NCBI GenBank assembly: GCA_963839295.1
Contig: CAWIUK010000013.1
Span: 67,603 to 131,602, forward strand
Length of the DNA stretch: 64,000 bases
Origin: an uncultured Acidobacteriota bacterium
GTDB lineage: Bacteria > Acidobacteriota > Thermoanaerobaculia > UBA5066
Reading direction: 5' to 3'
The notes beneath the pieces are model-generated. The model saw only the letters and a list, made by a program, of their open reading frames with translations, was not told where the DNA came from and searched no databases. Positions 275 through 60,930 of this stretch are shown here, piece by piece (the stretch's first letter is position 1; each line of letters begins with the position of its first letter). Both the position numbers and the translations under genes were made by a program.

Positions 275-1507
275 TCATCGCCGCGCCGGCCGGCAGAGGA
301 CGAGCGACGTGTCGCGCGCGTACAGGACGGGCACGGCCCAGTCCATCGGCTCGGCGGATCGCGCGACCGACACGGCGACGCGCGCCTCGCGCGCCGCCTC
401 GCCGAGCGCGTGGCCGCGCGCGAGAGCCCACATGAGGTGGCGCGCGAACGCCGTCGCGGACGTGTCGAGCACCTTGTACTGGTTCGCGACGACGGCCGGG
501 ATGCCGCCCGCGAGGAGCGAGGGCGCGACGCCGCGCAGGAAGTCGTTGCGGCCGCCGCGGCCGGTCTCGCACGCGTTCAGGACGACGAGCCGCAGGCCGC
601 GCCCGCAGAGGAGTCGGCGCAGGCGGTCCGCCTCGACCCAGGTCCCGTGGCCGCGGCCGTCCACGAGGAGGAGCGCGCCCGTCCTCTCCTTCTCGTCCCA
701 CGCGCCGTGCCCGACGAAATGGAGGACGTCGACGCGCGCGGACGCGAGCTTCCGGTGAAGGCCCGCGGGCGTCGCCGCCGGGAGGACGTCGAGGACGGCG
801 TGACCCGACCTCACGAGCGGCGCGAAGGCCGCGCGGACCGCGGCCGTCTCCTGCCGCGCCGAAACGGGCGTCGCGTCCCGCGGCTGCGCGACGGCGACGA
901 GGACGCGCAGCGGTCCCTTCCGGGGAGGCATCGTCTCGGGCGGGATCGCGCCGAAGACGTTGCGCACGAGGACGGCGTCGTCGGAGAGGAAACGGCGCCG
1001 CGACGGGTCCCACGCGAGCTCCCACGGCTTGTCGGCGATCCAGTCGAGCGCGGACGTGAACGAGAGCTCGAGCGGGCGCGGGGATGAGCCGCGCGCGGCG
1101 TCCCAGAGGCGGCGGACCTCTCCCGGGAAGAGCGTCTCGAAGAGGACCGCGCCGTAGGCGTGGAGCTCGCCGGCCTTCGGCAGGGGAGCCGAGGAGCGCC
1201 CGTCGAGGGCGCGGAGCACACTCTCGTGGAGCGCGATGATCCTCCGCATCCGTTCGCCCGCCGCGCCGCCCCGGGTCTCGAACGGCTCTACGACGCGGGC
1301 CCCCGCCCACGACGCGACGAGCCGCGGCGGCTCACCGTCGACGAGGAGGAGGTCGAACTTCTGCGCGCTTCGCGCGGAAGAGGGAGAGAAGAGAAGATTT
1401 CTTGGAAGGTGAATAGGGCTCGTGCGACCGGCCGTCGTGGCGGGCGCCGCCTCGGCCTTCGCCGCGCCCGGTGCGGCGCGCGGAGGCGCGCCGCGGTCGC
1501 TCTTCAC
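275..1507 (-). CDS. Stand-alone CHAT (caspase-like) domain protease
   Basis: Catalytic motifs LHFVGHG and LVVLNACETG, plus PWEL and W..PVLY CHAT motifs; no TPR region. Confidence 0.9.
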   Translation of the reverse strand: MKSDRGAPPRAAPGAAKAEAAPATTAGRTSPIHLPRNLLFSPSSARSAQKFDLLLVDGEPPRLVASWAGARVVEPFETRGGAAGERMRRIIALHESVLRALDGRSSAPLPKAGELHAYGAVLFETLFPGEVRRLWDAARGSSPRPLELSFTSALDWIADKPWELAWDPSRRRFLSDDAVLVRNVFGAIPPETMPPRKGPLRVLVAVAQPRDATPVSARQETAAVRAAFAPLVRSGHAVLDVLPAATPAGLHRKLASARVDVLHFVGHGAWDEKERTGALLLVDGRGHGTWVEADRLRRLLCGRGLRLVVLNACETGRGGRNDFLRGVAPSLLAGGIPAVVANQYKVLDTSATAFARHLMWALARGHALGEAAREARVAVSVARSAEPMDWAVPVLYARDTSLVLCRPARR

Positions 1508-2819
1508 TTTCTAAGAAACTCTTCAATCCCTCTTTCGTCTCATTCTGAGCAAAGAGATTCAGGTGATGGACGTCGCCCTCGAATCGTACGGTGTCTCTCT
1601 CGGCGATGCGGGCTCGCCCGAGGGAGAGGCCGCCCTCCGTCGGGACGACGAGGTCGTTCGGCGTCCGGAAGATCGCGTCGGCGCCGGCGTCGAGGAGGCG
1701 CTTCGCCAGGCCCCCTCCGGGCGTGAAGTCCGCGACGGCCGCGCCGTACGTCGTCCCGCCCGACGGCCGCGCGTTGAGGTCCGCGAGGAACGCGCCCGCC
1801 GGGTCCATCGCGGCGATTCCCGGGAGAGCGCCGCCCGCGCGCCGCGCGATCCAGACGAGCGCCTCTGCGGCGAAGTCGAGACCGAAGACGAGCGCCCCGG
1901 ACGGGAGCACCTCGCCGAGGTTCGCGATCCACGCCGCAAGCTCGTCCCACCGTGCCGGCGCCGCGAGCGGCGTCCCCTCGGACGGGGCGGCCGCGAGAAA
2001 CGCCCGGCCGATCGCCGGCGCGTTCGCCGTGGACGCGAGGGCGCGCAGGACGAGGCCGCCGCGCGAGTGCGTCACGACGTCGACGCGCGCTCCCGACAGC
2101 AGCGGTCGCAGCTCCCTCACGTTGTCGCCGGGCGCGCGGCTTACCGTGAGGTGGTTGAACGCGTAGACGCGGCCGCCGTACGCGGCGGCGAGCGCGTCGA
2201 ACGCCGCCGGCTCCTTCGCGAGGTCGCCGAACGCGGCGGACGCGTGCGAGAACGTCCCGTGGAGGAAGAGGAGCGCCTTTTCCGGGCCGCGCGGCAGCGA
2301 GCCGTGGACACGAGTGGCGACGAGGAAATCCCCGCGCCGCGCGAGAGACACGAGGCCGAGCGGCGCGCGGGCGGCGGCGAACCGGCGCCGCTCCCACGCG
2401 CGGGCGAGGAAGGGAAGGGCCGCCCGGGCAGCGGTCCCGGCGACGCGGAGGACGAAGAGCGCGACCGTTCCGGCCGGACCTCGGCGCGCCGGCGGGGGAA
2501 GGGGCACGTCGAAGACGTGCTCGCCGCCGGCGAACGAGACCGCCCGGTGGAACGTGAGCGCGCCCGAAGGATGGCGCGCGACCGCGACGAAGCCGCCGGA
2601 CGCCGGAGCCTCGACGCTGACGGCCGCGCGGCCGGGGAGTGCGGGCGCTCCCCGGCGCGGGCGCACGCGGGAGGCGGCCGCGAGGGAGAGGCGCCTCGTC
2701 GCGAGCGCGCGCGAGAGAAAGGGATCCTCGGCGGCGGCCCGGACCGTCGCGCGCCGCGCCGCGGGGCGCACGACTTCCCAGCCCGGGCTGGTCGAGAGGC
2801 GGACCCGCGGCGTCGCCAT
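1332..2819 (-). CDS. Alpha/beta-fold hydrolase (lipase/esterase-like); 3' end uncertain, possibly ~1504
   Basis: Oxyanion motif LFLHGTFS, nucleophile elbow VVTHSRGG, ND.VVP and C-terminal HH. The ORF overlaps the CHAT gene by 176 nt, which suggests an indel near 1508. Confidence 0.8.
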   Translation of the reverse strand: MATPRVRLSTSPGWEVVRPAARRATVRAAAEDPFLSRALATRRLSLAAASRVRPRRGAPALPGRAAVSVEAPASGGFVAVARHPSGALTFHRAVSFAGGEHVFDVPLPPPARRGPAGTVALFVLRVAGTAARAALPFLARAWERRRFAAARAPLGLVSLARRGDFLVATRVHGSLPRGPEKALLFLHGTFSHASAAFGDLAKEPAAFDALAAAYGGRVYAFNHLTVSRAPGDNVRELRPLLSGARVDVVTHSRGGLVLRALASTANAPAIGRAFLAAAPSEGTPLAAPARWDELAAWIANLGEVLPSGALVFGLDFAAEALVWIARRAGGALPGIAAMDPAGAFLADLNARPSGGTTYGAAVADFTPGGGLAKRLLDAGADAIFRTPNDLVVPTEGGLSLGRARIAERDTVRFEGDVHHLNLFAQNETKEGLKSFLESEERPRRASARRTGRGEGRGGARHDGRSHEPYSPSKKSSLLSLFRAKRAEVRPPPRRR

Positions 2820-2837
2820 GCCCGGTCTCGACGGGGC

Positions 2838-5121: not shown

Positions 5122-5122
5122 C

Positions 5123-6958: not shown

Positions 6959-7004
6959 GGCGGGAGATTGCCACGCCCGGCCGCGCGACGAAACGGGCGC
7001 CGTC

Positions 7005-8108: not shown

Positions 8109-8128
8109 TTCCCGATGATAGGGCCGCC

Positions 8129-11682: not shown

Positions 11683-14376
11683 TCACCGCGCGGGGCCCGT
11701 CCCGCGCTCCGGGGACTCGAGGAGCCAGATCCGGCCCGCGGAGGTCTCGCTGTCCGTGATCGCGAGGGACCGGCCGTCTCTCGAGACGTCGAACGGCGAA
11801 TTGCGTCCCACGACGGGAAGGGCCCTGGCGGAAACCGGATCCCGCGCGCCGAGCGGCGCGATCCTCAACCGCTGCAGGTCGTCGAATCCCAGCACGGAAT
11901 AGAGCACGCCCGCCGCGTTCGGCCACCAGACAGGCCAGCCTCCGGTGTCGGTGATCCGGTGCTCGTCCCCGCCCGCGGGCGTCACGAGCGAGACGCCGGA
12001 CGTGCCGGTCCGGTCCGCGGCGAACGCGATCCACCGGCCGTCCGGGGACCACCGGGGCAGCGTCGAGGGGCCCTTCGTGATCCTCCGGACCTCGGCGCTT
12101 CCGATCTTCTGCACGACGACGTGTGTTTCGCCGTCGACGGTGCTGGCGAACGCGAGCCGCGTCCCGTCGGGCGACGGGTCGGCGAACTCGGCCTCTCCGG
12201 ACGACTCGGGAGTGAGGGCCTCGGCCGGCCCGCCGCGGCGCGGGACGCGCCAGATCCGGTCCGCCCCCGTGCTCCACGTGAAGTAGGCGAGCCACTCGCC
12301 GTCGGCGGAGAAGCGCGGATAGACCTCGGGCAGCGGCGACGACGTCAGGCGCCGCGGCTCCCCGCCGCGCAGCGGCGAGATCCAGACGTGCCAGGACCCG
12401 TCCTCCTCGGCCCTGCTGTACGCGACGTCGAGACCGTCCGGCGAGAAGGCGGGGGCCCAGATCGAGCTCGAATGCGAGACGACCTGCCGCCGCGCGCCGG
12501 ACGCGAGGTCGTACACCCACAGGGCGCTGCGCTCGGGCGCGTTCAGGAAGGCGACCGCTCCGCCCGTCGAGACGCTGGGGCACAGATCGGGACCCGCTCC
12601 GCTCGTGAGGCGGACCGGTGCGCGGCCGTCGGACGGCAGGAACCAGAGGTTGGTGGCACCGCCGCGGTTCGAGACGTGCACGATTCCCGAGCCGTCCGGC
12701 GCAAAGACGGGAGCCTTGCTGAAGACGCCCGGCGGGTCCGTCCACAGGCGGCGCAGGTTGCCGTTCGACACCTGCAGGGTCCACAGCTCGCTCGCGGCGC
12801 CCCCGATGCTGCGTCCCACCGCGAGGAAGGCGCCGTCCGGCGACCACGCGAGGCGCCCGAAGAACGGGTATTTCGCGTCCCCGTTCAGGAGGACCCGTGC
12901 GTTCGAGCCGTCGGCCTTCGCGACGACGAGCTTCTGGGGCTCCGGCGGGTGCCAGGTCACGCAGGCCAGCGCGGCGCCGTCCGGAGACCAGGCGCCGCGG
13001 ATCGCGCCGGACAGGATGGGCGTCACGTTGCCTCCGAACGCGGGCACGGCGCGGATCTCCGGCGCCGCGCCGCTCGGGGGAAACCACGTGAAGAGGATCG
13101 ACTCGCCGTCGGGCGAGAACTGCGGTTCCGCCTCGCGAGCCTCGTCGTTCGTGAGGCGGATCCCCGCGCCGCCCGCGGCCCGGCTCACGAAGAGGTCGGC
13201 GCGGCCCTCCTGCTCGAGGACGTAAGCGACCATCTTCCCGTCGCCGGACAGCGCGAGGGAGTGGATCCGGGTTCCGCTCGAGAGGACCTCCCGCAGACGG
13301 CCGCCTCCGACGGGCAGCGGGCGGGTCCGCTCCTGGCGCGCCGCCGTCCAGGCCAGGGCCGCGGCCGCGACCGCGAGGCCGGCGACCGCGAGCGTCGCCA
13401 TGAGGCGGGTCCGGGACCGCTCGGCCGGCGGCCGCGGGATCGCCTCGGGACCAGGCGGCGGGAGCGCGAAGGCGGGGCGCTCCTTGCTGGGCGTCAGCCT
13501 CGCGCCGTCGGCCGGCGAGAGATGCGCGCGGCAGTCGAGGAGCTGCTTCGCGAGGTCCTCGGTGGACTCGTACCGGTCGCGAGGCTCCTTCGCGAGGCAA
13601 CGCTCGACGATCCAGCTCAGCGGCTCGGGCGTCCCGGGGACGGTGGTCGCGAGCGGTTCGGGCGCGTCGCGGATGATCGAGGCGATCGTCTCGGCGGGCG
13701 ACGCGCCCTTGAACGGCCGCCGCCGCGCGAGCATCTCGTAGAGGAGCACGCCGAACGAGAACTGGTCCGAGCGATAGTCGAGAGCCTGGCCCTTCGCCTG
13801 TTCGGGCGACATGTACGAGACCGTCCCCATGGGCGCCCCGTCCGTCGTGAGCTTCTCGAGGGTCGGCGATTCGCCTTCCGCCTTTGCGGCCGGGAGCGGC
13901 GCGCGGTACGCGAGCCCGAAGTCGAGGAGCTTCACGTGGCCGGTCTTCGTGATGAAGACGTTCTCCGGCTTCAGGTCGCGGTGGACGATCCCCTTCAGAT
14001 GCGCCGCCGCGAGCGCCTCGGCGACCTGGGCCGCGATGTCGAGCGTACGGCGCAGGCCGATCGGGCCGGCCGCGAGCGTCCCCCTCAGGTTCTCGCCGTC
14101 GAGGAGTTCCGTCACGAGGAACGTGACGTCCTTGATGCGGCCAAAATCGTGGATGGCGACGATGTTCGGGTGCGCAAGGGCCCCGATGGCCTTGGCCTCC
14201 TGCTCGAACCTCGCCCGGCTGTGCGGGTCAGCCGCCACGCTGCCCGCCAGGACCTTCACGGCGACGAGACGGTCCAGCTTGGTGTCCCGGGCCCGGAACA
14301 CTTCCCCCATCCCTCCCCCGCCCAGTCGGGCGAGGATCTCGTAGGGGCCGAGGCGGAAGCCCGGGGAGAGCGCCAT
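11683..14376 (-). CDS. Hanks-type Ser/Thr kinase with TM helix and PD40/TolB-like beta-propeller
   Basis: GGGGMGEV, VAVK, HRDLKPEN, DFG, YMSPEQ; hydrophobic segment; many (W/F)SPDG repeats. Confidence 0.95.
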   Translation of the reverse strand: MALSPGFRLGPYEILARLGGGGMGEVFRARDTKLDRLVAVKVLAGSVAADPHSRARFEQEAKAIGALAHPNIVAIHDFGRIKDVTFLVTELLDGENLRGTLAAGPIGLRRTLDIAAQVAEALAAAHLKGIVHRDLKPENVFITKTGHVKLLDFGLAYRAPLPAAKAEGESPTLEKLTTDGAPMGTVSYMSPEQAKGQALDYRSDQFSFGVLLYEMLARRRPFKGASPAETIASIIRDAPEPLATTVPGTPEPLSWIVERCLAKEPRDRYESTEDLAKQLLDCRAHLSPADGARLTPSKERPAFALPPPGPEAIPRPPAERSRTRLMATLAVAGLAVAAAALAWTAARQERTRPLPVGGGRLREVLSSGTRIHSLALSGDGKMVAYVLEQEGRADLFVSRAAGGAGIRLTNDEAREAEPQFSPDGESILFTWFPPSGAAPEIRAVPAFGGNVTPILSGAIRGAWSPDGAALACVTWHPPEPQKLVVAKADGSNARVLLNGDAKYPFFGRLAWSPDGAFLAVGRSIGGAASELWTLQVSNGNLRRLWTDPPGVFSKAPVFAPDGSGIVHVSNRGGATNLWFLPSDGRAPVRLTSGAGPDLCPSVSTGGAVAFLNAPERSALWVYDLASGARRQVVSHSSSIWAPAFSPDGLDVAYSRAEEDGSWHVWISPLRGGEPRRLTSSPLPEVYPRFSADGEWLAYFTWSTGADRIWRVPRRGGPAEALTPESSGEAEFADPSPDGTRLAFASTVDGETHVVVQKIGSAEVRRITKGPSTLPRWSPDGRWIAFAADRTGTSGVSLVTPAGGDEHRITDTGGWPVWWPNAAGVLYSVLGFDDLQRLRIAPLGARDPVSARALPVVGRNSPFDVSRDGRSLAITDSETSAGRIWLLESPERGTGPAR

Positions 14377-14961: not shown

Positions 14962-15648
14962 ATGTCGCTCGGCCTCCACCCGCGCGTCCGCGCCCTGACG
15001 ACGCCCGAGCGCCTCGCGGTCCTCGGCGCCGCGCTCGCGGTCTTCCTGTTCGCGGCGGGGCCCGTCTGGCGGCACCGCTGGGAGCCGGACGCCGCGATTC
15101 TCTGGAGCTACGCCGTGATCCCGCCGGGCGTCTTCGCCGCGTTCCTGCGGCGCGGGACGCCGCGGCTCGTGCCCGTCCTCGTCGAGTCGCTCCTCCTCGC
15201 GATCGTGAAGTTCGGGATCACGGCCTTCGTCCTCGTGACGCTCTGGTCGTTCGGGACGCCGCCGCCCGCGGCGCGTCCCGGCCGGCTTCTCGAAGACCTG
15301 TTGCGTTCGAAGAGCGCCAGGGATTCTTCGAGTGGTTCGGAAGATGCGGGCGCCGGCGGCGCGCGGCGAGCGGCGGCGGCCCTGGCCATCTCGGTGGGAG
15401 ACGGGGGATTTTCCTCGAAGGTGATTTCCCTCGCGCCGGGAGGCGACGTCGCGTTTCGTGCGACGGACGGGCGTCTCCACACGCTGGAGCTGCTTTCGGC
15501 GGACGGTTCGATCGGCGCGAACGTCCCCCTGCTCGCGTCCGGGGCGCCCCGCCTCATGTCATTCGAGGAAATCTCCCGGTTCTCCTCTCTCCGGTGCGCC
15601 GTCCACCCGGAGGAGAGAGCCGATCTCAGCGTCGCGCCCCGGCGATAG
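14962..15648 (+). CDS. Membrane protein with C-terminal cupredoxin-like domain
   Basis: About 3 TM segments, then a beta-rich domain with LHTL and CAVHP motifs. Confidence 0.6.
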   Translation: MSLGLHPRVRALTTPERLAVLGAALAVFLFAAGPVWRHRWEPDAAILWSYAVIPPGVFAAFLRRGTPRLVPVLVESLLLAIVKFGITAFVLVTLWSFGTPPPAARPGRLLEDLLRSKSARDSSSGSEDAGAGGARRAAAALAISVGDGGFSSKVISLAPGGDVAFRATDGRLHTLELLSADGSIGANVPLLASGAPRLMSFEEISRFSSLRCAVHPEERADLSVAPRR

Positions 15649-15657: not shown

Positions 15658-17265
15658 ATGGCGCGGGAGTTCGACACCGACTTCGCGGTCGTGGGATCTG
15701 GGTTCGGCGGGAGCGTCTCGGCGCTGCGGCTCGCGGAGAAGGGCTGGCGCGTCGTCGTCCTCGAGAAGGGCAAGCGTTTCTCGCCGGAGGACTTTCCAGA
15801 GACGAACTGGCAGCTCCCGAAGTGGCTGTGGCTTCCCGGCGTCGGGTTCCGGGGCCTCTTCAAGATGACGTTTCTCAGACACGTCACGGCGCTCTCGGGC
15901 GTCGGCGTCGGCGGGGGCTCCCTCGTCTACGCGAACACGCTGCCCGTCCCGGGAGACTCGTTCTTCTCGTCGCCGACGTGGGCCGGCCTCGCGGACTGGA
16001 AGAAGGAGCTCGCGACGCACTACGCGACCGCGAAGAGGATGCTCGGCACGACGCGCGTCCCGTTCACGTCGCCGCCGGACGAGGTCCTGCGCGACGTCGG
16101 GCGCGACCTCGGCCTCGTGGACAAGTGGCAGTCCACCGAGGTCGCCGTCTTCTTCGGCGAGCCGGGCGTCACGGTGCCGGATCCGTACTTCGGCGGCGAG
16201 GGCCCGGAGCGCGCGGGTTGCAAGTCCTGCGGCGCCTGCATGATCGGCTGCCGCCACAACGCGAAGAACACGCTGGACAAGAACTACCTCTTCTTCGCCG
16301 AGAAGAAGGGCGTCCGGATCGAGTCCGACGCCGAGGTCACGTGGGTGAAGCCGCTCGAAGGCGGCGGCTACACGCTGACGGTCCGCCGCGGCCGCGAGCC
16401 GTTCCCGTTCCTGAGAAAGAAGACGACGATGACCGCGCGGAACGTCGTCTTCGCGGGCGGGGTCCTCGGGACCGTCGAGCTCCTCCTGAAGCTCAAGGAG
16501 AGCCCGGACGGACTGCCGAGGCTCTCGGACCGTCTCGGCGACTTCGTGAGGACGAACTCCGAGGTCCTCATGGGCGTCGTGAGCGACAAGAACGAGGACC
16601 TCTCGAAAGGGATCGCGATCGGCTCGATCCTCGAGACGGACGAGCACTCGCACCTCGAGCCCGTCCGCTACCCGGCGGGCTCCGGGTTCTTTCGTCTCCT
16701 CGCGATGCCGCACGCGCCGGGCGATACGGTCGTCGAGCGCCTCGCGAACGCGCTCGGCCTCCTCGTCCGCCAGCCCGGCAAGACGCTGAAGGCGTGGCTC
16801 ACGCCCGATTGGGCGAAGCACACGATGATCCTCCTCTACATGCGGACCGTGGACGGCACGATCCGGATGACGCTTCGCCGGGGCCTGCGCAACGGCCTCC
16901 GCCACGCGCTCGCGACGTCGCCCGGGACGGGCGCGCCGGCGAAGGCGTGGGTCCCCGAGGCGACGGAGCTCGCGCGGCGTGTCGAGGAGAAGCTCGGCGG
17001 GTTCACGCAGAGCCTCCTGACGGAGACGCTGCTCGGGATCCCGACGACCGCGCACATCCTCGGCGGGTGCTGCATGGGCGCGTCGGCGGCGGACGGCGTC
17101 ATCGACGCCAGGAACCGGGTCTTCGGCTACGAGGGCCTCTGGGTCGTCGACGGCTCGGCGATCTCCGCGAACCCCGGCGTGAACCCCTCACTGACGATCA
17201 CGGCGCTCGCCGAGCGCGCGCTGTCGTTCGTGCCGGAGAAAGACGCGGCCTCGCGGGCGGCCTGA
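15658..17265 (+). CDS. GMC-family oxidoreductase (cholesterol oxidase-like)
   Basis: VVGSGFGGSVSALRL, GVGGGSLVYAN, CKSCGACMIGC, KNTLDKNYL, TAHILGG, GVNPSLTI. Confidence 0.9.
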   Translation: MAREFDTDFAVVGSGFGGSVSALRLAEKGWRVVVLEKGKRFSPEDFPETNWQLPKWLWLPGVGFRGLFKMTFLRHVTALSGVGVGGGSLVYANTLPVPGDSFFSSPTWAGLADWKKELATHYATAKRMLGTTRVPFTSPPDEVLRDVGRDLGLVDKWQSTEVAVFFGEPGVTVPDPYFGGEGPERAGCKSCGACMIGCRHNAKNTLDKNYLFFAEKKGVRIESDAEVTWVKPLEGGGYTLTVRRGREPFPFLRKKTTMTARNVVFAGGVLGTVELLLKLKESPDGLPRLSDRLGDFVRTNSEVLMGVVSDKNEDLSKGIAIGSILETDEHSHLEPVRYPAGSGFFRLLAMPHAPGDTVVERLANALGLLVRQPGKTLKAWLTPDWAKHTMILLYMRTVDGTIRMTLRRGLRNGLRHALATSPGTGAPAKAWVPEATELARRVEEKLGGFTQSLLTETLLGIPTTAHILGGCCMGASAADGVIDARNRVFGYEGLWVVDGSAISANPGVNPSLTITALAERALSFVPEKDAASRAA

Positions 17266-17723
17266 CGTTTTCGCGTTGGCGCGCACGGACCACAGGCGCC
17301 GCCATCGTTTGCGCGCACGGCAGGTGATAAGGCTCTTACCCTGCTGCGGTTAGGACGAGCCGGTTCGCCCGCCGTCTGCCGGTCTCCAGCTGCCGATAGT
17401 TCCCGGACCACCGCGCTCCTAGCCATCCACCCGGGGATCAGAGGGGAAAAGGCTCGCTTCTCGAACCTAGACTGACGTGGCGACCTGCCTTTGCGCGCGT
17501 ACACGCACCTTTTGCAGACTGCGATAGCATCTCACTCGCTTCGGTAGTCCGGAGGCCAGATGGAAGAGTCCAGCACCCCGGCGGCGCCCACCTGTCTTCA
17601 CGATGCGGTTGCGGGAGCTCTTCGGTGCACTCCGCTGTTCCGGTCGTGGAGAGAGCACGAGCACAGCCTTCCGCCACGCGTGAAGCATGGTTCGATGAAA
17701 TTCGAGAATTAGAAGGGGGACGT

Positions 17724-18440: not shown

Positions 18441-18505
18441 GGGACTTCGCCCTGTCTGTAGGGGCCGGACCACCGCGCTCTGAGCCAACCACCCGGGGAG
18501 CCGGG

Positions 18506-18537: not shown

Positions 18538-20321
<1,784 letters not shown>

Positions 20322-20325
<4 letters not shown>

Positions 20326-21667
20326 GGCTTGGGCGCCTTCGGCTTCGCGACGGCCGGCACGGCGATGCTGCGCTTCCCGTTCTTCCCGACGCTCCGCACC
20401 GCGAAGTAGTGGTTGTCCGTCGAAGATCCGAAGAAAGAACCAGAGAAAGATTTTCTTCGAGTGGCAAAGAGGCGGGCGAGGGCGCGGCGCTCGAGGCGGG
20501 CTGGGGCGTGGGTGCCGGCGCGCTCGCCGCCGGAGCCTCGATCGTCTTCACGACGGACCAGCGGGCCTCCGTGGTCTCCCTCCAGAGGATCTCGTATCCC
20601 GCGCGCTCCGGGTCCTTATTACTTTCTAAGAAGATCTCCGAATTCGGCGTCACGGCGCCCCCCAGCATCACCTTGAGGGGCGGGGCCGGCGCGTTCGCCA
20701 TCTCCGCGAGCGTCTTCGCGACGACGTCGGCCGTCCGCGCGACCTGGTCGAAGTCCATGAACTTCGCGAGGTCGCCGTACTCGACGCCGTTCTCGGTGCG
20801 CGGGGTCTGGTGCTCGTGCCGGTAGTCCTCGAGCGGCTCCGTGAAGCGAACGGCGGGGAAGCCCGCCTCGGCGAACGGCCGGTGGTCGCCGCTGCGGCCG
20901 AACCGGTCGAGACGGAAGACGAGGCGCACGGCGTCCTTGCCGGCGACGTCCTCGGCGAGCCGCGCCATCTGCCGGCCCGGCGAGTCGATCCCGTCCGGCC
21001 CGCCTTCCGAGAAGACGCGGACCCGGCGATCCGGGCTCCCGTTCGTCGCGCCGACGATGTCGCACGTGATCATCCCGCCCACGGCGTAGCCGTGGATTCG
21101 GAGCCACTCGAGCATCCGCTTCGACCCGAGAAGGCCCTGCTCCTCGCCGGCGACGGCCGCGAAGATCAGCGTCGCGCGCGCGGGCGCTGCGGCGAGGGCG
21201 CGCGCCGCGAGGATCGACGCCGCGGTGCCGGAGGCGTCGTCGTCGGCGCCCGGCGCGTCCGTCTCGGCGTCCATCACGTTCGAGGGCACCGAATCGAAAT
21301 GGCCGGAGACGATGTAGGCGGTCTTCGAACGCGCGGCGTCGGTCCCGCCGAGGATCGCGTAAACGTTCTCCATGTGGACCGGGACGTCCTTCGTCCGCGG
21401 CCCCTTCGTCTCGTACGAGTCGACGACGACGCGGAGCTTCCCGCCCGTCTCCTTCTCGACCGCGTCGAAATGCCGGAGGACGGCGTCACGCCCGCAGCCG
21501 GCGCCGCGCTTCGGGTCGGACCAGGACGAAAGGGAGTGGCGCGTCCCGCAAAGGGCGAGCTCCTCGACGATCGCCTTCGCCTCGGCGGCGGACGGGGCCG
21601 CGGAGGCGCGCGGGAACGCGCCGAGGCCGAGGGCGAACAGGGCGGCCGACGCCGGGGAAAGGCGCAT
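20322..21667 (-). CDS. M28-family metallopeptidase (one frameshift at ~20430-20460)
   Basis: Signal peptide; SGHFDS, GADDDASG, GEEQG, GDH.PF, EHQ. The C-terminus DNHYFAVRSVGKNG lies in another frame and ends with a TGA overlapping the symporter ATG. Confidence 0.85.
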
Positions 21668-21724
21668 GGCGGGTTCTCCTTCCGCGGGAAGGCGGGAATC
21701 GTACACGCCCGGGCGCGGGGGACC

Positions 21725-30261: not shown

Positions 30262-31209
30262 CGCCCGCGTTCCTTGCGCTCCTCCATCTCCTCGAGGCTC
30301 CTCGGCCAGTCGCCGCGCAGGAGGCGCGAGAGCGACCGGTCCGCGAGGAGCCTGCCGCCGGTCTGGCACGCCGGGCAGTAGTTCGTCTCGTTCGCCTCGT
30401 AAACGATTCGCTGGACTCCGGTCCCGCACCGCGGGCAGGGATTCCCGAACTTCCCGTGGACCGCCATTTCCGCGCGGAAGGCCGTGACCTTCTCCGGGAA
30501 CCGTCTCCGGCCTCGCGCCGCAGGCGGTCCGTCCAGTCGAGGAGAGTCGCGCGCGTCGCGTCGAAGAGCCGCGCCGCCTCGGCGTCGTCGAGGCGCGACG
30601 TGAGCGCGACGGGGGAGAGGCGCGCGGCGTGGAGGATCTCGTCCGAGTACGCGTTGCCGATGCCGGAGAAGAGCGTCGGGTCCGTCAGGGCGCGCTTCAG
30701 CGTGTGGTTCTCGCACCTAAGCGCGCACGACGAAGGCCTCGCGCGACGCCTCGAGGGGCTCGAGCCCGCCGGGGTCGAGGGCGGCGAGCGCCTCGCGCCC
30801 GGCGACGACGCGCACCCACGCCCGCTTCTTCGGGCTGGCCTCGGTCAGGAGGAGAGACCCATGGGCAAGATGCAGAGAAAGGAGGCCGATTTTCTTTGGA
30901 ATGGAGAATGGCGGCGTCGCCTGCCTTCCACCGAAGGCGGCCCGACGACCATGAGATGCAGGACGAGAAAAAGGCTGCCGTCGGGATCGCGCTCCTGGTT
31001 CGGGTCCCTCTCTTCCCCTTCAAAGGAAAATACGAGCCGTTTGCCCAGCCGGGACACCCCCCGCAGCGCGCGGCCTTCGAGGGCGCCAGGGGCGGCGCCA
31101 CCGACCGCAGGACGAACGGGCTCGCGAGGCGCACCTTGCGCAGCGTCTCGCCCTTCAGCAGCCGCTCGAGATGCTCGGCGTAGACGGTGACGTCCGGAAG
31201 CTCGGGCAC
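30234..31209 (-). CDS. mutM: Fpg/Nei family DNA glycosylase (several frameshifts)
   Basis: MPELPD N-terminus, RLGKRL, LHLM, H2[14 protein letters not shown], zinc finger CPRC...CPACQ, spread over several frames. Confidence 0.85.
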
Positions 31210-40104: not shown

Positions 40105-40896
40105 ATGTGCCTGATCGTCGTCGCGTGGCAGGCATCGCCGGCCGTGCGCCTCGCGGTCGCCGCGAACCGGGACGAGTTCTTCGCGCGCGAGACCGTCCCG
40201 GCGGCTTTCTGGGCGGATGCGCCGGACGTCCTCGCGGGACGGGACCTTCGGGCCGGAGGAACGTGGCTCGGCGTCACGCGGACGGGCCGGTTCGCGGCCC
40301 TCACGAACTTCCGCGACCTGACGGCGGCGCGAAAGAGCGGCGCCCCGTCTCGGGGCACGCTGGTCGGGGATTTTCTCAGAAGGAAAGAGAGCGCGGCGGA
40401 CTACGTCTCGCGCATCCTTCCGAATGCGAATTCCTTCGAGGGATTCAATCTCCTCGTCTCGGATGGAACAGACCTCTTGTCCTATTCCAACGTCGAGGGC
40501 GGCGCGGTCTCTCTTCCCCCGGGCGTCTACGGCCTCTCGAATCACCTCCTCGAAACGCCGTGGCCGAAGGTCGTCGCGGCGCGGGAACGGCTCGCAGCGG
40601 GCGTCGCGACCGCGCGAGGCCCGCGGGACCTCGAGGACGGCCTTCTTTTCCTTCTAGGAAATCGGACCGCGGCACCCGACGACGCCCTGCCGGAAACGGG
40701 TCTCCCTCTCGAATGGGAGCGCTCTCTCTCGGCCGCCTTCGTCGTCCTCCCGGACTACGGAACCCGTGCGTCCACGACCTTCGTCCTTTCATCCGACGGC
40801 GCAGCGCGCTTCACGGAACGAAGCTTCGGCGCGGGCGGCGCGTTTCTCGGCGAGGTGCGCGAGGCGTTCGGGGTCAGCGGGACGACGAGAGCGTGA
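40105..40896 (+). CDS. NRDE/TANGO2 family protein
   Basis: MCLI, AANRDEF, GGTWLG, SRG.LV, GFNL, GLSN, YGTRAST. Confidence 0.93.
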   Translation: MCLIVVAWQASPAVRLAVAANRDEFFARETVPAAFWADAPDVLAGRDLRAGGTWLGVTRTGRFAALTNFRDLTAARKSGAPSRGTLVGDFLRRKESAADYVSRILPNANSFEGFNLLVSDGTDLLSYSNVEGGAVSLPPGVYGLSNHLLETPWPKVVAARERLAAGVATARGPRDLEDGLLFLLGNRTAAPDDALPETGLPLEWERSLSAAFVVLPDYGTRASTTFVLSSDGAARFTERSFGAGGAFLGEVREAFGVSGTTRA

Positions 40897-42656: not shown

Positions 42657-42682
42657 GGGACCGGATCTTACGATGCCGGAGG

Positions 42683-45388
<2,706 letters not shown>

Positions 45389-45446
45389 GGGATGCGAATT
45401 ATGGACTTGGACGCAGGCGCGGCTTCGCGGTGGGTCCCGCAGCGCG

Positions 45447-51927: not shown

Positions 51928-51931
51928 GGCG

Positions 51932-53983
51932 TCACCTCATCCAGCGGTCGAGCCAGCCGAGGACCTCCGCGTACCAGACCTTCGCGTTCGGCCCCCGGAG
52001 CACCCAGTGGCCTTCGTCCGGGAAGTAGACGAGGCGCGCCGGGATTCCTTTCGCCTTGAGCGTCCCGTAGAACTCGAGGCCCTGTCCCACGGGGACGCGG
52101 TAGTCCTTCTCGCCGTGCACGATCAGGACCGGCGTCGTGAAGGCTGCCGCGTAGCGGTTCGGGCTCCACTTCTCCACGGCGTCCCGGTTCGTGAACGGGG
52201 ACCCGCCGTACGAGTGGTGCCGGCCGTACGTCTCGTCGGAGGCGAACTGCGCCATGAGGTCGTAGACGCCCGCGTGCGAGACGAGGCACTTGAAGCGGTC
52301 CGTGTGGCCCGCGATCCAGTCGACGAGGAAGCCGCCGTACGAGCCTCCGGCCGCGGCCATGCGGGCGGGATCGACGCGGCCCTGCGCGATCAGGACGTCC
52401 GTCGACTTCATGACGTCCGTGAACGGCTTGTCCGGGTGCGCGCCCAGGATCGACTCGACCCACTTCTGGCCGAAGCTCGACGAGCCGTGGAAGTTCACCA
52501 TCGCGACGACGTAGCCGGGCGCCGCGAACGCGTGCGGGTGCCAGCGGAACGAGAACGCGTCCCCGAACGTCCCGACGGGGCCGCCGTGGATCAGCTGCAC
52601 GAGCGGGTACTTCTTCCCCGGCTCGGCGCCCGGCGGCGCGACGACGAACATCTGGACGTCGTCGCCGCCCGCGCCCTTGAACGTGACGTCCTCGACGGCG
52701 CCGAGATTCCACGTCGCGACGAGCGCGTCGTTCACGTGCGTGAGCATCCGGAACGCCGATCCGTCGATCTTCACCGCCGCGATCTCCGGCGGGTGATTGA
52801 GGTCGTTCCGCTGGAACACGATCTCGCCGCCCGGCGTCACGGTCGGACCGGCCGCCGTGCCGCCCCTCCAGACGAGGCGCGGCGTCCCGCCGGAGACCGG
52901 AATCGCGTAAAGGTTCGTCCGCGCCCGCGCCTCGGCCGTGAAGACGATCGTCTTGCCGTCCTTCGCGAACGTGAAGCCGCCGCACGAGCTCTCCCAGCCG
53001 TCCGTGAGAAGTCGCACGGCGCCCGTCGCGACGTCGAGGAGGGCGAGGCGCGTGTAGTCGGGCCACTCGTCGGCCCTGGCGTGCGTCCCGAACGCGATCG
53101 TCCTGCCGTCGGGCGAGAAGACCGGGTTCCCGTCCATGCCGGCGCGCCCCGGCGTCAGGTTCCGGACCTCGCCGCCTGCCGCCGGCACGAGGAACAGGTC
53201 CCAGTTGAGCGTGGCGTACGGCTCGGGCGTCGAGTTCGCGGCGAAGACGATCGACTTCCCGTCGGGCGCGACGTCGAAGGAGCCGCCCTCGTCGAGGCCG
53301 AAGTACCGCTTGTTTCCGGGCGTGAGATCGGTGACCTTCTTCGTCGCGACGTCGACGACGAAGAGGTGCGGGTACTCGCCGTCCGTGAGCCAGTGGTCCC
53401 AGAAGCGGTAGAGGCGGTTCTCGGTCGTCCGCGCCTTGACGGTGGCCTTCTCGCGCTTCTCGAGCGCCTTCTTCGTGTCCTCCGGCGACGCCGCGCCGTC
53501 CACCAGGTTCGCGAGGAACGCGATGCGCGTGCCGTCCGGGAACCACTTCGGGTTCGAGACGGCGGTCGGCATCTCGGTGAGGCGCTCGGGTTCTCCTCCG
53601 TCGAGCGGCAGGACGTAGACCTGCGCTGCGGCGTCGCCTTCGCGCTTCGAGAGAAAGGCGAGGCGCCTGCCGTCGGGGCTGAAGGCCGGCGACGTGTCGG
53701 AGGCCCTGTTCGCCGTCAGGCGGCGCGAGGCGCCGGAGGCGACGTCGACGACGTAGAGGTCGGCGTTCGCCTTCATCTCGTCGCCCTCGTAGGCCGTGAC
53801 GGCGTACGCCGCGCGCGCGCCGTCGGGCGAGAGGACCGGAGTCCCGACGCGCTTGACGGCCCAGAGGTCGTCGACGCCGAACGGCTTCTTCGCCACGGCG
53901 GCGTCGGCGGCGGAGAGGGGGAGCGAGGCGAGGAGGGCGAGGGCGGCGGTGAGGAGTGCGGGTCGGAAACGCTGCATGCGCAT
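51932..53983 (-). CDS. S9 family peptidase (acylaminoacyl/dipeptidyl peptidase)
   Basis: Signal peptide; SPDG propeller repeats; IHGGP, GGSYGG, HGEKDYRVP, FPDEGHW. Confidence 0.95.
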   Translation of the reverse strand: MRMQRFRPALLTAALALLASLPLSAADAAVAKKPFGVDDLWAVKRVGTPVLSPDGARAAYAVTAYEGDEMKANADLYVVDVASGASRRLTANRASDTSPAFSPDGRRLAFLSKREGDAAAQVYVLPLDGGEPERLTEMPTAVSNPKWFPDGTRIAFLANLVDGAASPEDTKKALEKREKATVKARTTENRLYRFWDHWLTDGEYPHLFVVDVATKKVTDLTPGNKRYFGLDEGGSFDVAPDGKSIVFAANSTPEPYATLNWDLFLVPAAGGEVRNLTPGRAGMDGNPVFSPDGRTIAFGTHARADEWPDYTRLALLDVATGAVRLLTDGWESSCGGFTFAKDGKTIVFTAEARARTNLYAIPVSGGTPRLVWRGGTAAGPTVTPGGEIVFQRNDLNHPPEIAAVKIDGSAFRMLTHVNDALVATWNLGAVEDVTFKGAGGDDVQMFVVAPPGAEPGKKYPLVQLIHGGPVGTFGDAFSFRWHPHAFAAPGYVVAMVNFHGSSSFGQKWVESILGAHPDKPFTDVMKSTDVLIAQGRVDPARMAAAGGSYGGFLVDWIAGHTDRFKCLVSHAGVYDLMAQFASDETYGRHHSYGGSPFTNRDAVEKWSPNRYAAAFTTPVLIVHGEKDYRVPVGQGLEFYGTLKAKGIPARLVYFPDEGHWVLRGPNAKVWYAEVLGWLDRWMR

Positions 53984-54059
53984 GCCGCGATCTTCCCGCA
54001 TCCCCGCGCGGTGGCCTAGCAGAGGTAGGATCCGTCCAACCAATCGAGAGGAGGACTCC

Positions 54060-54776: not shown

Positions 54777-54778
54777 TC

Positions 54779-55156: not shown

Positions 55157-55162
55157 GGAGCG

Positions 55163-56047: not shown

Positions 56048-56098
56048 GCGGAGCCACTGTACCGTATCCTGAGCCGATCCCGACACCGAGGTGACCGC

Positions 56099-58780
56099 AT
56101 GTCCGTCCGCCCGATTGCGCTCAGCCTGCTCGTTCTCGCCTGTCCCTCGACGGGCCTCCCGGCCACGGGGAAGGCGGCTCCCGCGCCCGCTTCCGCCCCT
56201 TCCCCCGCGCGGGCCGTGCCGGAATCCGCGCTGCGCGCCTTTGCCGCCCGGTCCATCGGGCCCGCCGTGATGGGCGGGCGCGTCACGGACGTCGCGCTCG
56301 ACCCCGAGAACCCGGCCGGGTTCTGGGTCGCGCTCGCGACGGGCGGCGTGTTCCGCACGGCGAACGGCGGCGCGACGTTCGAGGCCGTCTTCGAGGGGGA
56401 GAGCGTCGCCTCCGTCGGCGCCGTCGCCGTTTCGCCGGCCGACCCGAAGACCGTCTGGGTCGGGACGGGCGAGGGGACGGACCGCAACACGGCCGGCTGG
56501 GGCGACGGCGTCTACCGCTCGACCGACCGCGGCGCCGCATGGACGCGCGTCGGCCTGACGGCCTCCCGCGCGATCGCGCGGATCGCCGTCCACCCGAAGG
56601 ACCCGAAGATCGCGTACGTCGCGGCGCTCGGCAGCCTCTGGACGTCCGGCGGCGAGCGCGGCCTCTACAAGACGACGGACGGCGGGGCGTCGTGGACGCG
56701 CGTCCTCGGCGCGCCCGGCGCGCTCGCGCAGAAGGTCGGCGCGTGCGACGTCGTCCTCGACCCCACGGACCCGGAGGTCGTCTACGCCGCGCTCTACGCG
56801 CGCCTCCGGACGCCGTGGTCGTTCGCGTCGGGGCCCGAGGCTTCGGACGGGAAGGACGCGGGCGGGATCTTCAAGTCCACGGACGGCGGTGCGACGTGGA
56901 AGAAGCTCGGCGGGGGCCTCCCGGGCTCCCTCCAGCGCGTCGGCCTCGACGTCTTCCGCGCGAACCCGAAGATCGTCTACGCGATCGTGCAGACGGCCGA
57001 GGGCGGGCCGACCCCGCTCCGCGAGGTGCGCACGAAACGCGGGGGCGTCTTCCGGTCGGAGGACGGCGGCGAGACGTGGACGCGCACGAGCCCGCTCGAC
57101 CCGCGCCCGTTCTACTTCAGCCAGATTCGCGTGGATCCCGCGAACGACAAGCGCGTCTACGTCCTCGGGATCGCGCTCCACGTCTCGGACGACGGCGGGC
57201 GGAGCTTCCGCGAGGACCTCGGCGAGGCCGTGCATCCCGACGGCCACGCCCTCGCCGTCGACCCGCGGAACCCGAAGCACCTCGTCCTCGGGACGGACGG
57301 CGGCGTCTACCAGAGCTTCGAGGGCGGGAAGAACTGGGCGCACCTCGACCGGATCGCCGCCGGCGAGTATTACCGGGTCGCCCTCGACGACGCCACGCCG
57401 TACCGCATCGCGGGCGGGCTCCAGGACAACCTGAACTGGCTCGGGCCGTCCGCGACGGGGACGAAGGAAGGGATCCGCAACGCGGACTGGATCAACCTCG
57501 GCGGCGGCGACGGCTTCTCGAACGCGTTCGACCCGGGCGAGCCCGGCGTCGTCTACGCCGAGTCCCAGGGCGGAAACGTCTTCCGGATGGACCTCAGGAG
57601 CGGCGAGAGGAAGGACCTCCGCCCGCAGCCGGAGGAGGGGCATCCGGCGTTCCGGTTCCACTGGTGCGCGCCGCTCCTCGCGAGCCGCCACGAGAAGGGA
57701 GTCCTCTTTCTCGGCGGGAATCGCGTCTTCCGGCTCACGGCGCGCGGGGAGGAGTGGGTCCCGATCAGCCCGGATCTCTCCGCGCAGGACCCGGGGAAAA
57801 CGACCGCGACGGGCAGCGGCGCCGAGACGTACGGCGTCGTCTACGCGCTCGCGGAATCGCCGCTCGAGGCCGGCCTCCTGTGGGCGGGGACCGACGACGG
57901 CAAGCTCTGGGTCACGCGGGACGGCGGCGGGACGTGGACGGACCTCACGGCGTCACTGCCTCCGGCCGCGAAGGGACAGTGGATCGGCCGCATCGAGCCG
58001 AGCGCCTACGACGCGAAGGCGGCGTACCTCGCCGTCGAGGCGTACCGGTCCGGCAACGACGCGCCGCTCGCCTTCCGGACCGCCGACCTCGGCCGGACGT
58101 GGACGAGCGTCGTCGGGAACCTGCCCGCGAACGGCCCCGTGAAGGTCGTCCGCGAGGACCCGAAAAACCCGTCGCTCCTGTTCGCCGGCACGGTGTCCGG
58201 CCTCTACGTGTCGCTCGACCGCGGGACGAGCTGGACGAAGTTCGGGCGCCTCCCCACCGTCGAGGTGGACGACCTCGCGATCCACCCCCGTGAGCGCGAC
58301 CTCGTGATCGCGACGCACGGGCGGAGCCTCTTCATCGCGGACGACCTCTCGGCCCTCGAGGCGTTCACGCCCGAGATCGCCGCGGAAGACGCCCATCTCT
58401 TCCCGCCGAAACCCGCCTTCGGCACGAACCGCTTCTCGGGCTGGAGCGAGTGGAACGGAAAGGCCGCCTTCCGCGGGAAGAACCCGCCCGAGGGCGCGGT
58501 CTTCACGTACTGGATCCGCGCGCTCACGGTGGACGACGTGAAGATCACGATCGACGGGCCGGGCGGCGTGCCGGTCGCGAAGCTCGAGGCGCCCGGGACG
58601 CCGGGCTTCGGCCGCGTGTCCTGGGACCTCAAGCCGACGAAGGAGTTCCTTTCCGAGTCGAGCAGCGAGGGAAAACGGTTCGTGCGCCCGGGTACCTATA
58701 CCGTGACCCTCACGCACGGGAAGACGAAGGTGAAGCAGACTCTCGACGTGAAGATCGCCGAGGGCATCGAGACCCGGTGA
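56099..58780 (+). CDS. Secreted VPS10/BNR-repeat (sortilin-like) beta-propeller protein
   Basis: RSIGPA.MGGR, many S/T-D-G-G-x-T/S-W Asp boxes, GGLQDN, GGGDG, ATHGRS. Confidence 0.88.
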   Translation: MSVRPIALSLLVLACPSTGLPATGKAAPAPASAPSPARAVPESALRAFAARSIGPAVMGGRVTDVALDPENPAGFWVALATGGVFRTANGGATFEAVFEGESVASVGAVAVSPADPKTVWVGTGEGTDRNTAGWGDGVYRSTDRGAAWTRVGLTASRAIARIAVHPKDPKIAYVAALGSLWTSGGERGLYKTTDGGASWTRVLGAPGALAQKVGACDVVLDPTDPEVVYAALYARLRTPWSFASGPEASDGKDAGGIFKSTDGGATWKKLGGGLPGSLQRVGLDVFRANPKIVYAIVQTAEGGPTPLREVRTKRGGVFRSEDGGETWTRTSPLDPRPFYFSQIRVDPANDKRVYVLGIALHVSDDGGRSFREDLGEAVHPDGHALAVDPRNPKHLVLGTDGGVYQSFEGGKNWAHLDRIAAGEYYRVALDDATPYRIAGGLQDNLNWLGPSATGTKEGIRNADWINLGGGDGFSNAFDPGEPGVVYAESQGGNVFRMDLRSGERKDLRPQPEEGHPAFRFHWCAPLLASRHEKGVLFLGGNRVFRLTARGEEWVPISPDLSAQDPGKTTATGSGAETYGVVYALAESPLEAGLLWAGTDDGKLWVTRDGGGTWTDLTASLPPAAKGQWIGRIEPSAYDAKAAYLAVEAYRSGNDAPLAFRTADLGRTWTSVVGNLPANGPVKVVREDPKNPSLLFAGTVSGLYVSLDRGTSWTKFGRLPTVEVDDLAIHPRERDLVIATHGRSLFIADDLSALEAFTPEIAAEDAHLFPPKPAFGTNRFSGWSEWNGKAAFRGKNPPEGAVFTYWIRALTVDDVKITIDGPGGVPVAKLEAPGTPGFGRVSWDLKPTKEFLSESSSEGKRFVRPGTYTVTLTHGKTKVKQTLDVKIAEGIETR

Positions 58781-58781
58781 G

Positions 58782-59747: not shown

Positions 59748-60930
59748 AAGGGGCATGGGTCGCGGCCGAGCGCGTCGAGGAGGTCCGCGCGGCCGCCCGC
59801 GGCTGGAAGAGAGCGGCCGCCATCAGCGAGGGCACATTCGAAGAAATTCTGAGAAGGTATCCCGAGCCGCGAACGCTGCCCGCTCCGCTCTGGCGGATCC
59901 TCACGTTCGTCTTCGGCAGTTTCATCCTTCTCGCCGTCTTCGCCTCGTTCGCCGTTGCGGCTCGCCCGAACGTGTCCGGAGCCTGGGTCCTTGTGCGCCG
60001 TGTTCGGCGCGGCGTTCCTCGCCCTCGCCGAGCTCCAGGCCCGCTCTCCCTCCATGGCCCTGCGGGGAGGCGTCGAGGCGGCGAGCTTCTGGGGCATCGC
60101 CCTCCTCGTCGCCAGCCTTTTCTTCCTATTCGAAGAAGATCTTCATCTCTCCGAGTCCAAAGGATTCGAACCTCGTCCTGGCGGGGGCCGCGGTCCTGCT
60201 CGCGTTCGGCGCCTGGCGCTGGGGAAACGCCGCGTTCGCGGGATTCGCCGCGGGCGCCCTCTTCGTCCTCCTCGCGCGCGCGCCGCACGGCCGGCTGCTC
60301 TGGGTCGCGGCCGGCGTCGCCCTGAGCGCGGCGGCGGAGAGGTTCGCGGACCGGACGGCCTGGGCGCCCTCGCACCGCGCCTGCGCCCGGGGCCTCGTCG
60401 TCTGCGGGATCGCGGGCGTCTACGCCGCGGTGAACTGCTGGTCGCTCGACCACCGGGTGATCGAGGACCTGGGGAGTCGCACCCGCACGCTGCCGGAAAG
60501 CGGACCGGGCGACGGCGCCTGGATCGTCGCGGTCCTCGCGACCGCCCTCGTTCCCGCGGCGGTGTTCCTGCGCGGCGTCGTCCGGCGGCGGGCGCTCCTC
60601 GTCGACACGGGCCTCGTTCTCGCCGCGCTCTCCCTCGTGACGCTGCGCGAGTACGTCCACGTCGCGAGCCTCGGCGTCGTCCTCGCGGCGGCGGGCTCGC
60701 TGCTCGTCGGGGGCGCCCTGGCGGTGAACCGCTGGCTGCGCGGCGGCCCGGAAGGCGAGCGCGGCGGGTTCACCGCGGACGCGCTGTTCGCGGACGAGGC
60801 GGGCCTCCGCGCGGTCGAGCTCGTGCCGGTCCTCGCGGCGCACGCGCCCGCCGCGAAGCCCCCGGACGAGCCCGGCTTCTCGGGGGGCGGGGGCGGGTTC
60901 GGCGGGGGCGGCGCAGGTTCTTCCTACTGA
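59744..60930 (+). CDS. Multi-TM membrane protein with Gly-rich C-tail (frameshifts at ~59990 and ~60160)
   Basis: TTG start overlapping the upstream TGA; W...G-like start; TM helices across three frames; ends FSGGGGGFGGGGAGSSY. Confidence 0.7.

Follow-up and report, generated by a model that had tools for sequence, protein, structure and literature searches.

A 64,000-nucleotide stretch of the draft genome of an uncultured soil acidobacterium of the class Thermoanaerobaculia (the window; positions 67603-131602 of contig C13 of assembly G000) holds scattered copies of a short AT-rich palindrome. This palindrome is one arm of a two-armed, positionally conserved DNA element. An earlier reading of the window alone, referred to here as the original prediction, had proposed that the DNA sequence itself is under selection irrespective of gene boundaries, and this is strongly supported by a codon-preserving null, by orthologous genes and by positional conservation among relatives. 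The elements may well be paired recognition sites on duplex DNA for a genus-specific factor that brings both arms together, an interpretation that we adopt with slightly less than even confidence. The original prediction as a whole is partly supported.

Oriented arms in convergent pairs

The assembly is a 4.05 Mb draft in 16 contigs, with ~70.6% GC and 89% completeness. The 11-mer that had drawn attention, CTTTCTAAGAA, is present at 1507, 19195 and 20622, and no copy arose in any of 100 dinucleotide shuffles of the window. The degenerate form YTTCNNNGAAR occurs ten times in the window against 2.2±1.4 expected (shuffle maximum 6). These ten sites take in every variant of this form listed originally (1398, 15410, 40372, 40651 and 45148) together with two that had not been listed, at 21004 and 25410. 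Direct reading likewise bore out the tandem at 59837-59855, the copies of TTCGAAGAA at 45242 and 60129, and the GGGGA prefixes.

Genome-wide, the 9-mer TTCTAAGAA (complement TTCTTAGAA) has 194 sites. Homopolymers of A or T excepted, it is the most frequent of the AT-rich 9-mers, a set of 7722 9-mers with at least seven A/T positions, for which the median count is 1 and the 99th percentile 24. Alignment of the 194 sites yields an oriented, purine-rich consensus of ~45 nt, AGATT-TTCTTAGAA-GGTGAAGAGGGG. The 11-mer is real, but it forms no more than the centre of an arm that is longer and asymmetric, and the arms stand in convergent pairs. In the orientation designated F, a purine-rich tract is followed by AG A T/A T, then TTCTTAGAA, then GG T/G GAAGAGGG and ordinary GC-rich DNA; D denotes the same arm on the other strand. 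The footprint extends from about -24 to +22, is low in GC, and carries 65-83% purine on the F strand, broken by the pyrimidine half of the core.

A position matrix was built from seed sites, its core softened by hand, and applied at a threshold of at least 20 bits. It returned 702 raw matches, or 686 arms after overlap merging, compared with 87 in the reversed, non-complemented genome. The arms group into 423 loci with a mean gap of 9.0 kb, a coefficient of variation (CV) of 1.2 and a largest gap of 89 kb. Locus spacing is slightly clustered and not regular; regular spacing was rejected on the CV, which corrects the original prediction on this point.

Neighbouring arms within 400 bp are arranged as 212 F-to-D pairs, against 11 D-to-F, 21 F-F and 19 D-D. 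A convergent partner of at least 10 bits lies 45-400 bp inward of 583 of the 683 arms tested (85%), compared with 39 on the outward side and 72-78 in same-orientation controls. Pair spacing has a mode of 74-95 bp and a tail to ~350 bp, with few pairs closer than ~65 bp (five at 47-54 bp). The 212 spacers have no 16-mers in common. Of the two outer flanks, one is rich in purines and the other in pyrimidines. The unit is an inverted pair of arms around a unique spacer. Two other ways of delimiting a unit were rejected. A small open reading frame (ORF) for which the F arm would supply the ribosome-binding site and the D arm, by its TAA, the stop codon was dismissed because 29 exact pairs lack a consistent in-frame start and any mod-3 preference in spacing. 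Longer F-to-D neighbours (400-5000 bp; 18 cases), considered as autonomous elements, have gene contents that are unrelated, judged by coordinates alone.

Conflict with codon usage and protein sequence

Synonymous codons were shuffled 20 times within each of 2607 confident genes, as called by an approximate codon-log-odds caller made for this analysis. Genic arms of at least 20 bits number 280, compared with 33.3±3.7 after shuffling (~8-fold); genic TTCTNAGAA occurs 79 times compared with 1.65±1.6 (~50-fold), and exact genic 9-mers 56 times compared with 0.75. The observed counts far exceed what amino acid sequence and codon usage together would produce. The codons at the arms had been described as rare, and by genome usage they are: AGA makes up 1.3% of Arg codons, TTT 4.8% of Phe, CTT 4.2% and TTA 0.1% of Leu, with GAA at 13% and GGT at 3.4%. 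Outside genes the leading core is TTCTTAGAA (127 of 409), whereas within genes it is TTCTTCGAA (86 of 277), which avoids the stops TAG and TAA, as expected if coding constraint degrades an optimal DNA site.

The 11-mers at 19195 and 20622 lie in unrelated genes and different reading frames, as had been claimed. Site 19195 falls in a sodium:solute symporter gene (Pfam SSF) and encodes YKRFLRK within the peptide YKRFLRKGAS, site 20622 encodes EIFLES in an M28 peptidase gene, and site 1507 is at the 3′ end of a DUF7379 gene or just beyond it. Synonymous sites of the symporter were compared in 19 genus rows, consisting of 18 relatives' loci and G000. TTT is found in 19/19 rows, AGA for the first Arg in 18/19 and AGA for the second Arg in 17/19 (CGA in 2), giving the pattern AGA TTT CTN AGA. 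At the centre of the palindrome, the third position of the Leu codon shows free variation, and adjacent synonymous sites vary too. Five public records of metagenome-assembled genomes of the genus repeat the codon pattern. The string is found in 0/74 outgroup orthologs despite a similar peptide (Y-K/R-R-F-L/I-…), for which the codons are mostly CGC/CGG TTC CTG/CTC AAG/CGG.

The M28 peptidase and a family of kinases carry the conflict into the protein itself. In the peptidase, the F arm is present in 18/18 genus rows and the D core in 17/18. The genus reads …SEIFLEGNRD…, a variable low-complexity insert, and then LPLEENLSSVL…STDN, whereas 15 outgroup rows from other families read …AKIAWSAPED…GENVLKGVSTDN…, with AKIAWSAPED and GENVLKGV at the places of the two arms. 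This contrast stands without row L131 (genome G030). The replacement of outgroup residues (IAWSA by IFLEG) indicates that the arms arose in place by substitution, at amino-acid cost. Among the kinases, 15 pairs have a spacing of exactly 93 nt and all are kinase-like by translation (VAVKVLPEEFFEGEERRQRFEREA…LNHP…IYSFEEIPSSS), including the window kinase at 42683-45388. A second kinase in the window, at 11683-14376 (Pfam Pkinase), is without arms and reads GSVAADPHSRARF…IHDFGRIKD in ordinary GC-rich codons; its GSVAADPHS corresponds to EEFFESEEN in the arm-bearing kinase. In both the M28 peptidase and the kinase family, the motif overrides protein sequence.

Such substitutions bear on whether the arms could be decayed or domesticated ends of a miniature transposon, comparable to a MITE (a miniature transposable element with inverted repeats), a REPIN (a doublet of repetitive extragenic palindromic, or REP, sequences; PMC3116915) or a Rickettsia palindromic element (RPE), inserted in the ancestor of the genus. 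The architecture resembles terminal inverted repeats with a central TA, copies run to hundreds, and the 74-95 bp mode resembles the spacing of REPIN doublets. However, the in-gene spacers are homologous to outgroup protein sequence, which places the origin of the arms in substitution, the spacers have nothing in common at the 16-mer level, and the elements occupy orthologous positions across species. A search of G000 for Y1_Tnp (PF01797), DDE_3 (PF13358) and DDE_Tnp_1 (PF01609) returned no matches, other transposase families not having been searched. We give a transposon origin hardly any credence, and for the genic copies it is largely refuted.

Elements of the window and their distribution

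Eight elements are found in the window:

Element 1: 1379..1538, unstranded; F core TTCTTGGAA at 1399-1407, a GC-rich spacer of ~100 nt, and D core TTCTAAGAA at 1509-1517; both arms score 36.6 bits.
Element 2: 15391..15590, unstranded; F core TTCCTCGAA at 15411-15419 and D core at 15562-15570; 20.5 and 19.7 bits.
Element 3: 19100..19226, minus strand; in the symporter gene 18538-20325(-), with a strong arm AAGAGATTTCTTAGAAAGG whose core at 19197-19205 encodes KRFLRK.
Element 4: 20433..20653, unstranded; within the FN3-like C-terminal portion of the gene for the M28 peptidase (~21706 to 20322, minus strand), with cores at 20453-20461 (TTCTTCGAG on the plus strand) and 20624-20632 (TTCTAAGAA on the plus strand); 25.4 and 34.9 bits.
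Element 5: 30872..31048, unstranded; an F-like arm GATTTTCTTTGGAATGG at ~30888-30904, with a core one base longer, and D core TTCAAAGGA at 31019-31027; 25.4 bits for the D arm.
Element 6: 40353..40681, unstranded; in ORF 40105-40896(+), with F core TTCTCAGAA at 40373-40381 (GDFLRRKES) and D core TTCTAGGAA at 40652-40660 (LLFLLGN); 27.2 and 24.6 bits.
Element 7: 45129..45271, unstranded; in the Ser/Thr kinase gene 42683-45388(-), with cores at 45149-45157 and 45242-45250, spacing 93, encoding EEFFESEE and YSFEEIPSSS on the gene strand.
Element 8: 59827..60158, unstranded; in a membrane-protein ORF 59755-60930(+), with F core TTCTGAGAA at 59847-59855 after TTCGAAGAA at 59837, and D core TTCGAAGAA at 60129-60137; 18.8 and 27.9 bits.

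All the AT-rich patches noted originally, and also the one at 30860-31040 (Element 5) that had been described as having no exact site, prove to be pairs of this kind or strong arms accompanied by a weaker one. The partner of Element 3 is probably a weak candidate near 19105-19125 (CTGAATCTCTCG).

In six syntenic relatives, an arm of the same orientation is kept at 31 of the 38 alignable arm positions. Element 1 lies between genes or at the 3′ end of the DUF7379 gene, upstream of a CHAT gene (both on the minus strand), and a comparison of G000 with G014 finds the arms and outer flanks kept and the spacer largely different at a near-constant length (109 vs 108). Both arms of Element 2 are present in 3/3 alignable relatives, each arm of Element 4 in 4/4, and Element 6 in 3/3. 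The F-like arm of Element 5 is kept in 7/7 aligned genomes around a spacer with a 39-nt indel. In Element 8, the D arm is found in 2/3 alignable relatives and the F arm in 0/3.

Some further features of these loci were noted. In G000 the M28 peptidase frame shifts just after the D arm (20400-20440, minus strand), where two extra bases give TTCGGATCTTCGACG in place of the TTCGATCTCCACCG of 17 relatives, and the conserved C-terminus STDNHYFAVRSVGKNGKRS…KP* follows in a different frame. Either the gene is truly a pseudogene, or the assembly has an indel error in this AT-rich patch. Within Element 6, a third AT-rich stretch at 40430-40455, TTCGAAGGATTCAATCTCCTC (FEGFNLL), is invariant in four aligned genomes; it may represent another site resembling an arm, or else a motif conserved in the protein. 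Outside the window, at C16:364-408 kb of G000, at least ten paralogous genes, kinase-like by translation, each carry a pair at the same place with 93-nt spacing. The syntenic region of G044 lacks 20327-21687, 42679-45444, 17263-18465, 51951-54014 and 56064-58773, which hold, among others, the M28 peptidase, the kinase with Element 7 and a carbonic anhydrase; two of the missing variable genes have an element near one boundary.

The motif is restricted to the genus. The 19-mer TTCTTAGAAGGTGAAGAGG, allowing up to two mismatches, occurs 121 times in G000, and per-genome counts in the 24 further genus members sampled range over 39-209, compared with 0-3 times in five genomes from four other genera of the same family and 0-1 times in 16 genomes from two other families of the order. 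Reading the 19-mer backwards as a control gave 0-2 matches per strand. An assembly artefact was rejected because the motif is found in all 24 of those other genus genomes, in assemblies of 2 to 690 contigs. The most frequent core variants differ by species, being TTCTTTGAA in G021, GGGGAAGAGG inner flanks in G009 and TTCTTCGAA in G000. These hint at dialects that might track changes in the reader. Elsewhere in G000, C3:454916-459366 is a 4.4-kb run of 1067 bases of one A/T homopolymer followed by 3384 of the other, with a 69-base run at 452154; assembly error is almost certainly the cause.

Of the 212 pairs, 91 lie within called genes and 121 between genes, which makes them ~10-fold denser in the 11.5% of the genome that is non-coding. 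The intergenic pairs are near background with respect to gene orientation (82 tandem, 20 divergent and 18 convergent, against 1595, 469 and 338). Genic arms are divided into 133 sense and 144 antisense, and single intergenic arms between co-directional genes into 65 with and 51 against transcription. A promoter or 5′ untranslated region element was rejected, as the intergenic pairs are distributed like background and ordinary divergent promoter regions of the window are without the motif. The 3′ tail of the 16S rRNA (L001, contig C10 of G000), …GGATCACCTCCTTTCTAAAGGA, is similar to the D arm, …TCACCTTCTAAGAA, and a near-perfect Shine-Dalgarno sequence, AGAAGGTGA, lies in the F arm; we treat this likeness as coincidence because arm orientation is neutral to genes.

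A distribution of this kind could also reflect molecular drive. In this case the motif would favour DNA uptake or recombination, like the DNA uptake sequence (DUS) of Neisseria, the uptake signal sequence (USS) of Pasteurellaceae and possibly HIP1, and would have spread by substitution wherever it is tolerated because carrier DNA is preferred. DUS and USS are likewise genus- or family-specific, with an oriented core and flanks, are made by point substitution and are tolerated in coding sequence at amino-acid cost, and inverted pairs of them occur. The over-representation of the oriented motif in both coding and non-coding DNA, its restriction to the genus, its origin by substitution even where amino acids had to change, its ~10-fold greater density outside genes and the ~5-fold spread in copy number among species would fit such a signal. 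ComEC and ComEA-like genes are present in G000, as in most control genomes, and being common they are weak evidence. However, DUS and USS are single sites that are paired only as short terminator hairpins, whereas here a convergent partner at 45-400 bp is nearly obligatory (85% of arms). At one locus per 9 kb, the density is ~10-fold below that of DUS and USS, and the loci are clustered and uneven, with gaps up to 89 kb. We regard a drive signal as improbable.

A proposed reader of the element, and known systems

If the elements are paired recognition sites, each arm would be an asymmetric site of ~25-45 bp, in which a palindromic core, TTCT-N-AGAA, has an AAGATT side outward and a GGTGAAGAGGGG side inward within a purine-rich tract. 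The two arms face each other across a spacer of ~50-350 bp, free in sequence. The reader would be a protein acting on duplex DNA, namely a genus-specific factor that engages the core of every arm as a dimer and makes further contacts in the flanks. Two bound arms would then interact, being brought together by bridging, a micro-loop or synapsis at ~300-420 loci per genome. The dimeric protein site of the original prediction is retained to the extent that the palindromic core, TTTCT-N-AGAAA with its middle base free, suits a dimeric reader. The arm itself is ~45 nt long and asymmetric, and in 85% of cases has a convergent partner.

Several observations weigh against paired duplex sites. The arms can pair with each other (mean -32 kcal/mol), and the minimum-energy fold pairs both cores in 92 of 108 short elements. 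Owing to the symmetry of the unit, tests of strand neutrality have little power against RNA models. The spacings have no clear 10.5-bp period, although phasing of this length is what small rigid loops should produce; the periodogram peaks near 9.25-9.5 bp (R 0.18-0.19, compared with ~0.07 for random spacings). The footprint is long and of low complexity, unusual for a simple operator. The ~5-fold variation of the 19-mer count between species could mean turnover rather than fixed architecture. Finally, no binder emerged from the searches for ParB_N and for recombinase and transposase families.

The pairing of the arms raises the alternative of a hairpin, formed either in RNA or in DNA that is single-stranded while being replicated or transferred, and recognised by structure as well as sequence, as REP is by RAYT, attC by IntI and long stems by RNase III. 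A hairpin would account for inverted-repeat arms with a stable duplex and for a spacer free in sequence, and the purine-rich and pyrimidine-rich outer flanks would extend the potential stem. However, there is no partner-specific covariation, with 4123 identical positions against 4143±38 when partners are permuted (z = -0.5). The duplex with the arm's own partner is no more stable than that with a foreign partner (-31.9 vs -31.8 kcal/mol for the top strand, -31.4 vs -31.1 for the bottom; shuffled partners give -19.8 kcal/mol). We read this as each arm being held to the consensus independently by a sequence-specific reader. Sense and antisense pairing energies differ by -0.58±0.62 in the 91 in-gene pairs and by -1.26±0.72 in the 82 co-directional intergenic pairs, neither of which is significant. 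Nor would a hairpin explain the scarcity of pairs closer than ~65 bp. Rfam covariance models gave no match at E<=1 across the whole window, and the 89%-complete G000 returned no Y1/RAYT transposase. On this evidence a hairpin is unlikely.

A different use of inverted arms is found in invertons, in which a site-specific recombinase would invert the spacer. Between genes this would flip promoters, and genes such as the paralogous kinases would be recoded or inactivated in a reversible manner. The arms flank 50-350 bp, within the size range of known invertible segments, the palindromic core with its free centre is crossover-like, and 15 paralogous kinases carry the pair at one place. Four tyrosine recombinase genes are present in G000. 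Such genes are not enriched in the genus, however (3-13, compared with 2-20 elsewhere), and a search of G000 for a serine invertase gave no match to the Resolvase family. In-gene spacers are in functional orientation in all aligned species, and ~300 or more loci would be unprecedented. Contigs of relatives from four Logan runs contained skips only and no strand-switch joints, although contigs drop minor forms. Invertons are a very unlikely explanation.

Returning to paired duplex sites, a more specific form of the proposal would be a previously undescribed kind of feature. It would consist of convergent recognition arms, always in pairs and several hundred in number, which evolved where they stand, conserved coding sequence included. 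A genus-specific factor would synapse the two arms, either as micro-loops held by protein or as a "paired-end" complex of a domesticated enzyme, competent for recombination or incompetent for excision. We consider this form possible but doubtful. A full-text literature search for the 9- to 11-mers gave, among the matches listed, uses as primers or STAT sites only and none concerning bacterial repeats, and a search combining Thermoanaerobaculia with repeat terms gave no paper with the taxon name among the matches listed. On this more specific form, a function at the level of the chromosome would be powerful enough to set codons and amino acids across many genes. To identify the reader would be to bring something new into the biology of bacterial chromosomes or into that of recombination. 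The genus offers a clean and measurable case of a non-coding signal overriding codon usage, and even amino acids, throughout its genomes. For practical work, the motif provides binning with a sharp taxonomic marker and calls for caution with gene callers and codon-based analyses in these genomes.

By the properties that define them, the element is not a REPIN, a MITE or RPE, an uptake sequence (on account of its pairing), an attC site, a ParB-type site or a known RNA. The REP sequences of Pseudomonas and E. coli, with their bacterial interspersed mosaic elements (BIMEs) and REPINs, are also lineage-specific imperfect palindromes of ~25 nt in hundreds of copies, typically inverted doublets tens of bases apart. 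REPINs, however, are replicative units with homologous spacers, extragenic and dependent on a RAYT (Y1) enzyme, whereas here the spacers are unique, 91 of the 212 pairs are in genes at orthologous positions, and no Y1_Tnp was found in G000. RPEs are likewise palindromic repeats translated in frame within genes, and they are insertions of a homologous unit of 100-150 bp. Here only the arms are common, and those of the symporter, M28 peptidase and kinase replace homologous outgroup or paralogue residues without insertion of a unit.

The original prediction had likened the palindrome to matS, SlmA, Noc and parS sites. These are also palindromic protein sites scattered through genes, made by substitution and lineage-specific, but they are single symmetric sites, numbering tens per genome and placed relative to ori or ter. 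The likeness does not extend to hundreds of asymmetric arms with convergent partners. ParB_N counts also reveal no genus-specific extra ParB/Noc-like paralogue, being 2-3 in all ten genus genomes scored (G000 included) and 0-3, mostly 2, in 27 genomes from other genera of the family.

Integron attC sites resemble the element in having conserved inverted ends around a centre of variable length and sequence, which plays no part in recognition by its sequence. They are the ends of cassettes in arrays, with RYYYAAC/GTTRRRY boxes, and depend on IntI. The arm consensus is without these boxes, and the elements are dispersed (mean gap 9 kb) and found inside conserved genes.

The cyanobacterial HIP1 (GCGATCGC) is an iterated palindrome, over-represented in genes and conserved by selection, whose function was long unknown (PMC5861425). 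It has since been linked to natural transformation efficiency in a 2024 preprint (10.1101/2024.09.10.611283) and to horizontal gene transfer and two methylases in 2026 (PMC13756078). HIP1 differs from the element in being a symmetric 8-mer, far denser, with no oriented flank or paired geometry. The pairing rule, with its convergent arms, few pairs below ~65 bp and free spacer, separates the element from HIP1 and REP elements, from uptake sequences and from the sites used in partition or occlusion, and it points to a reader that needs two sites.

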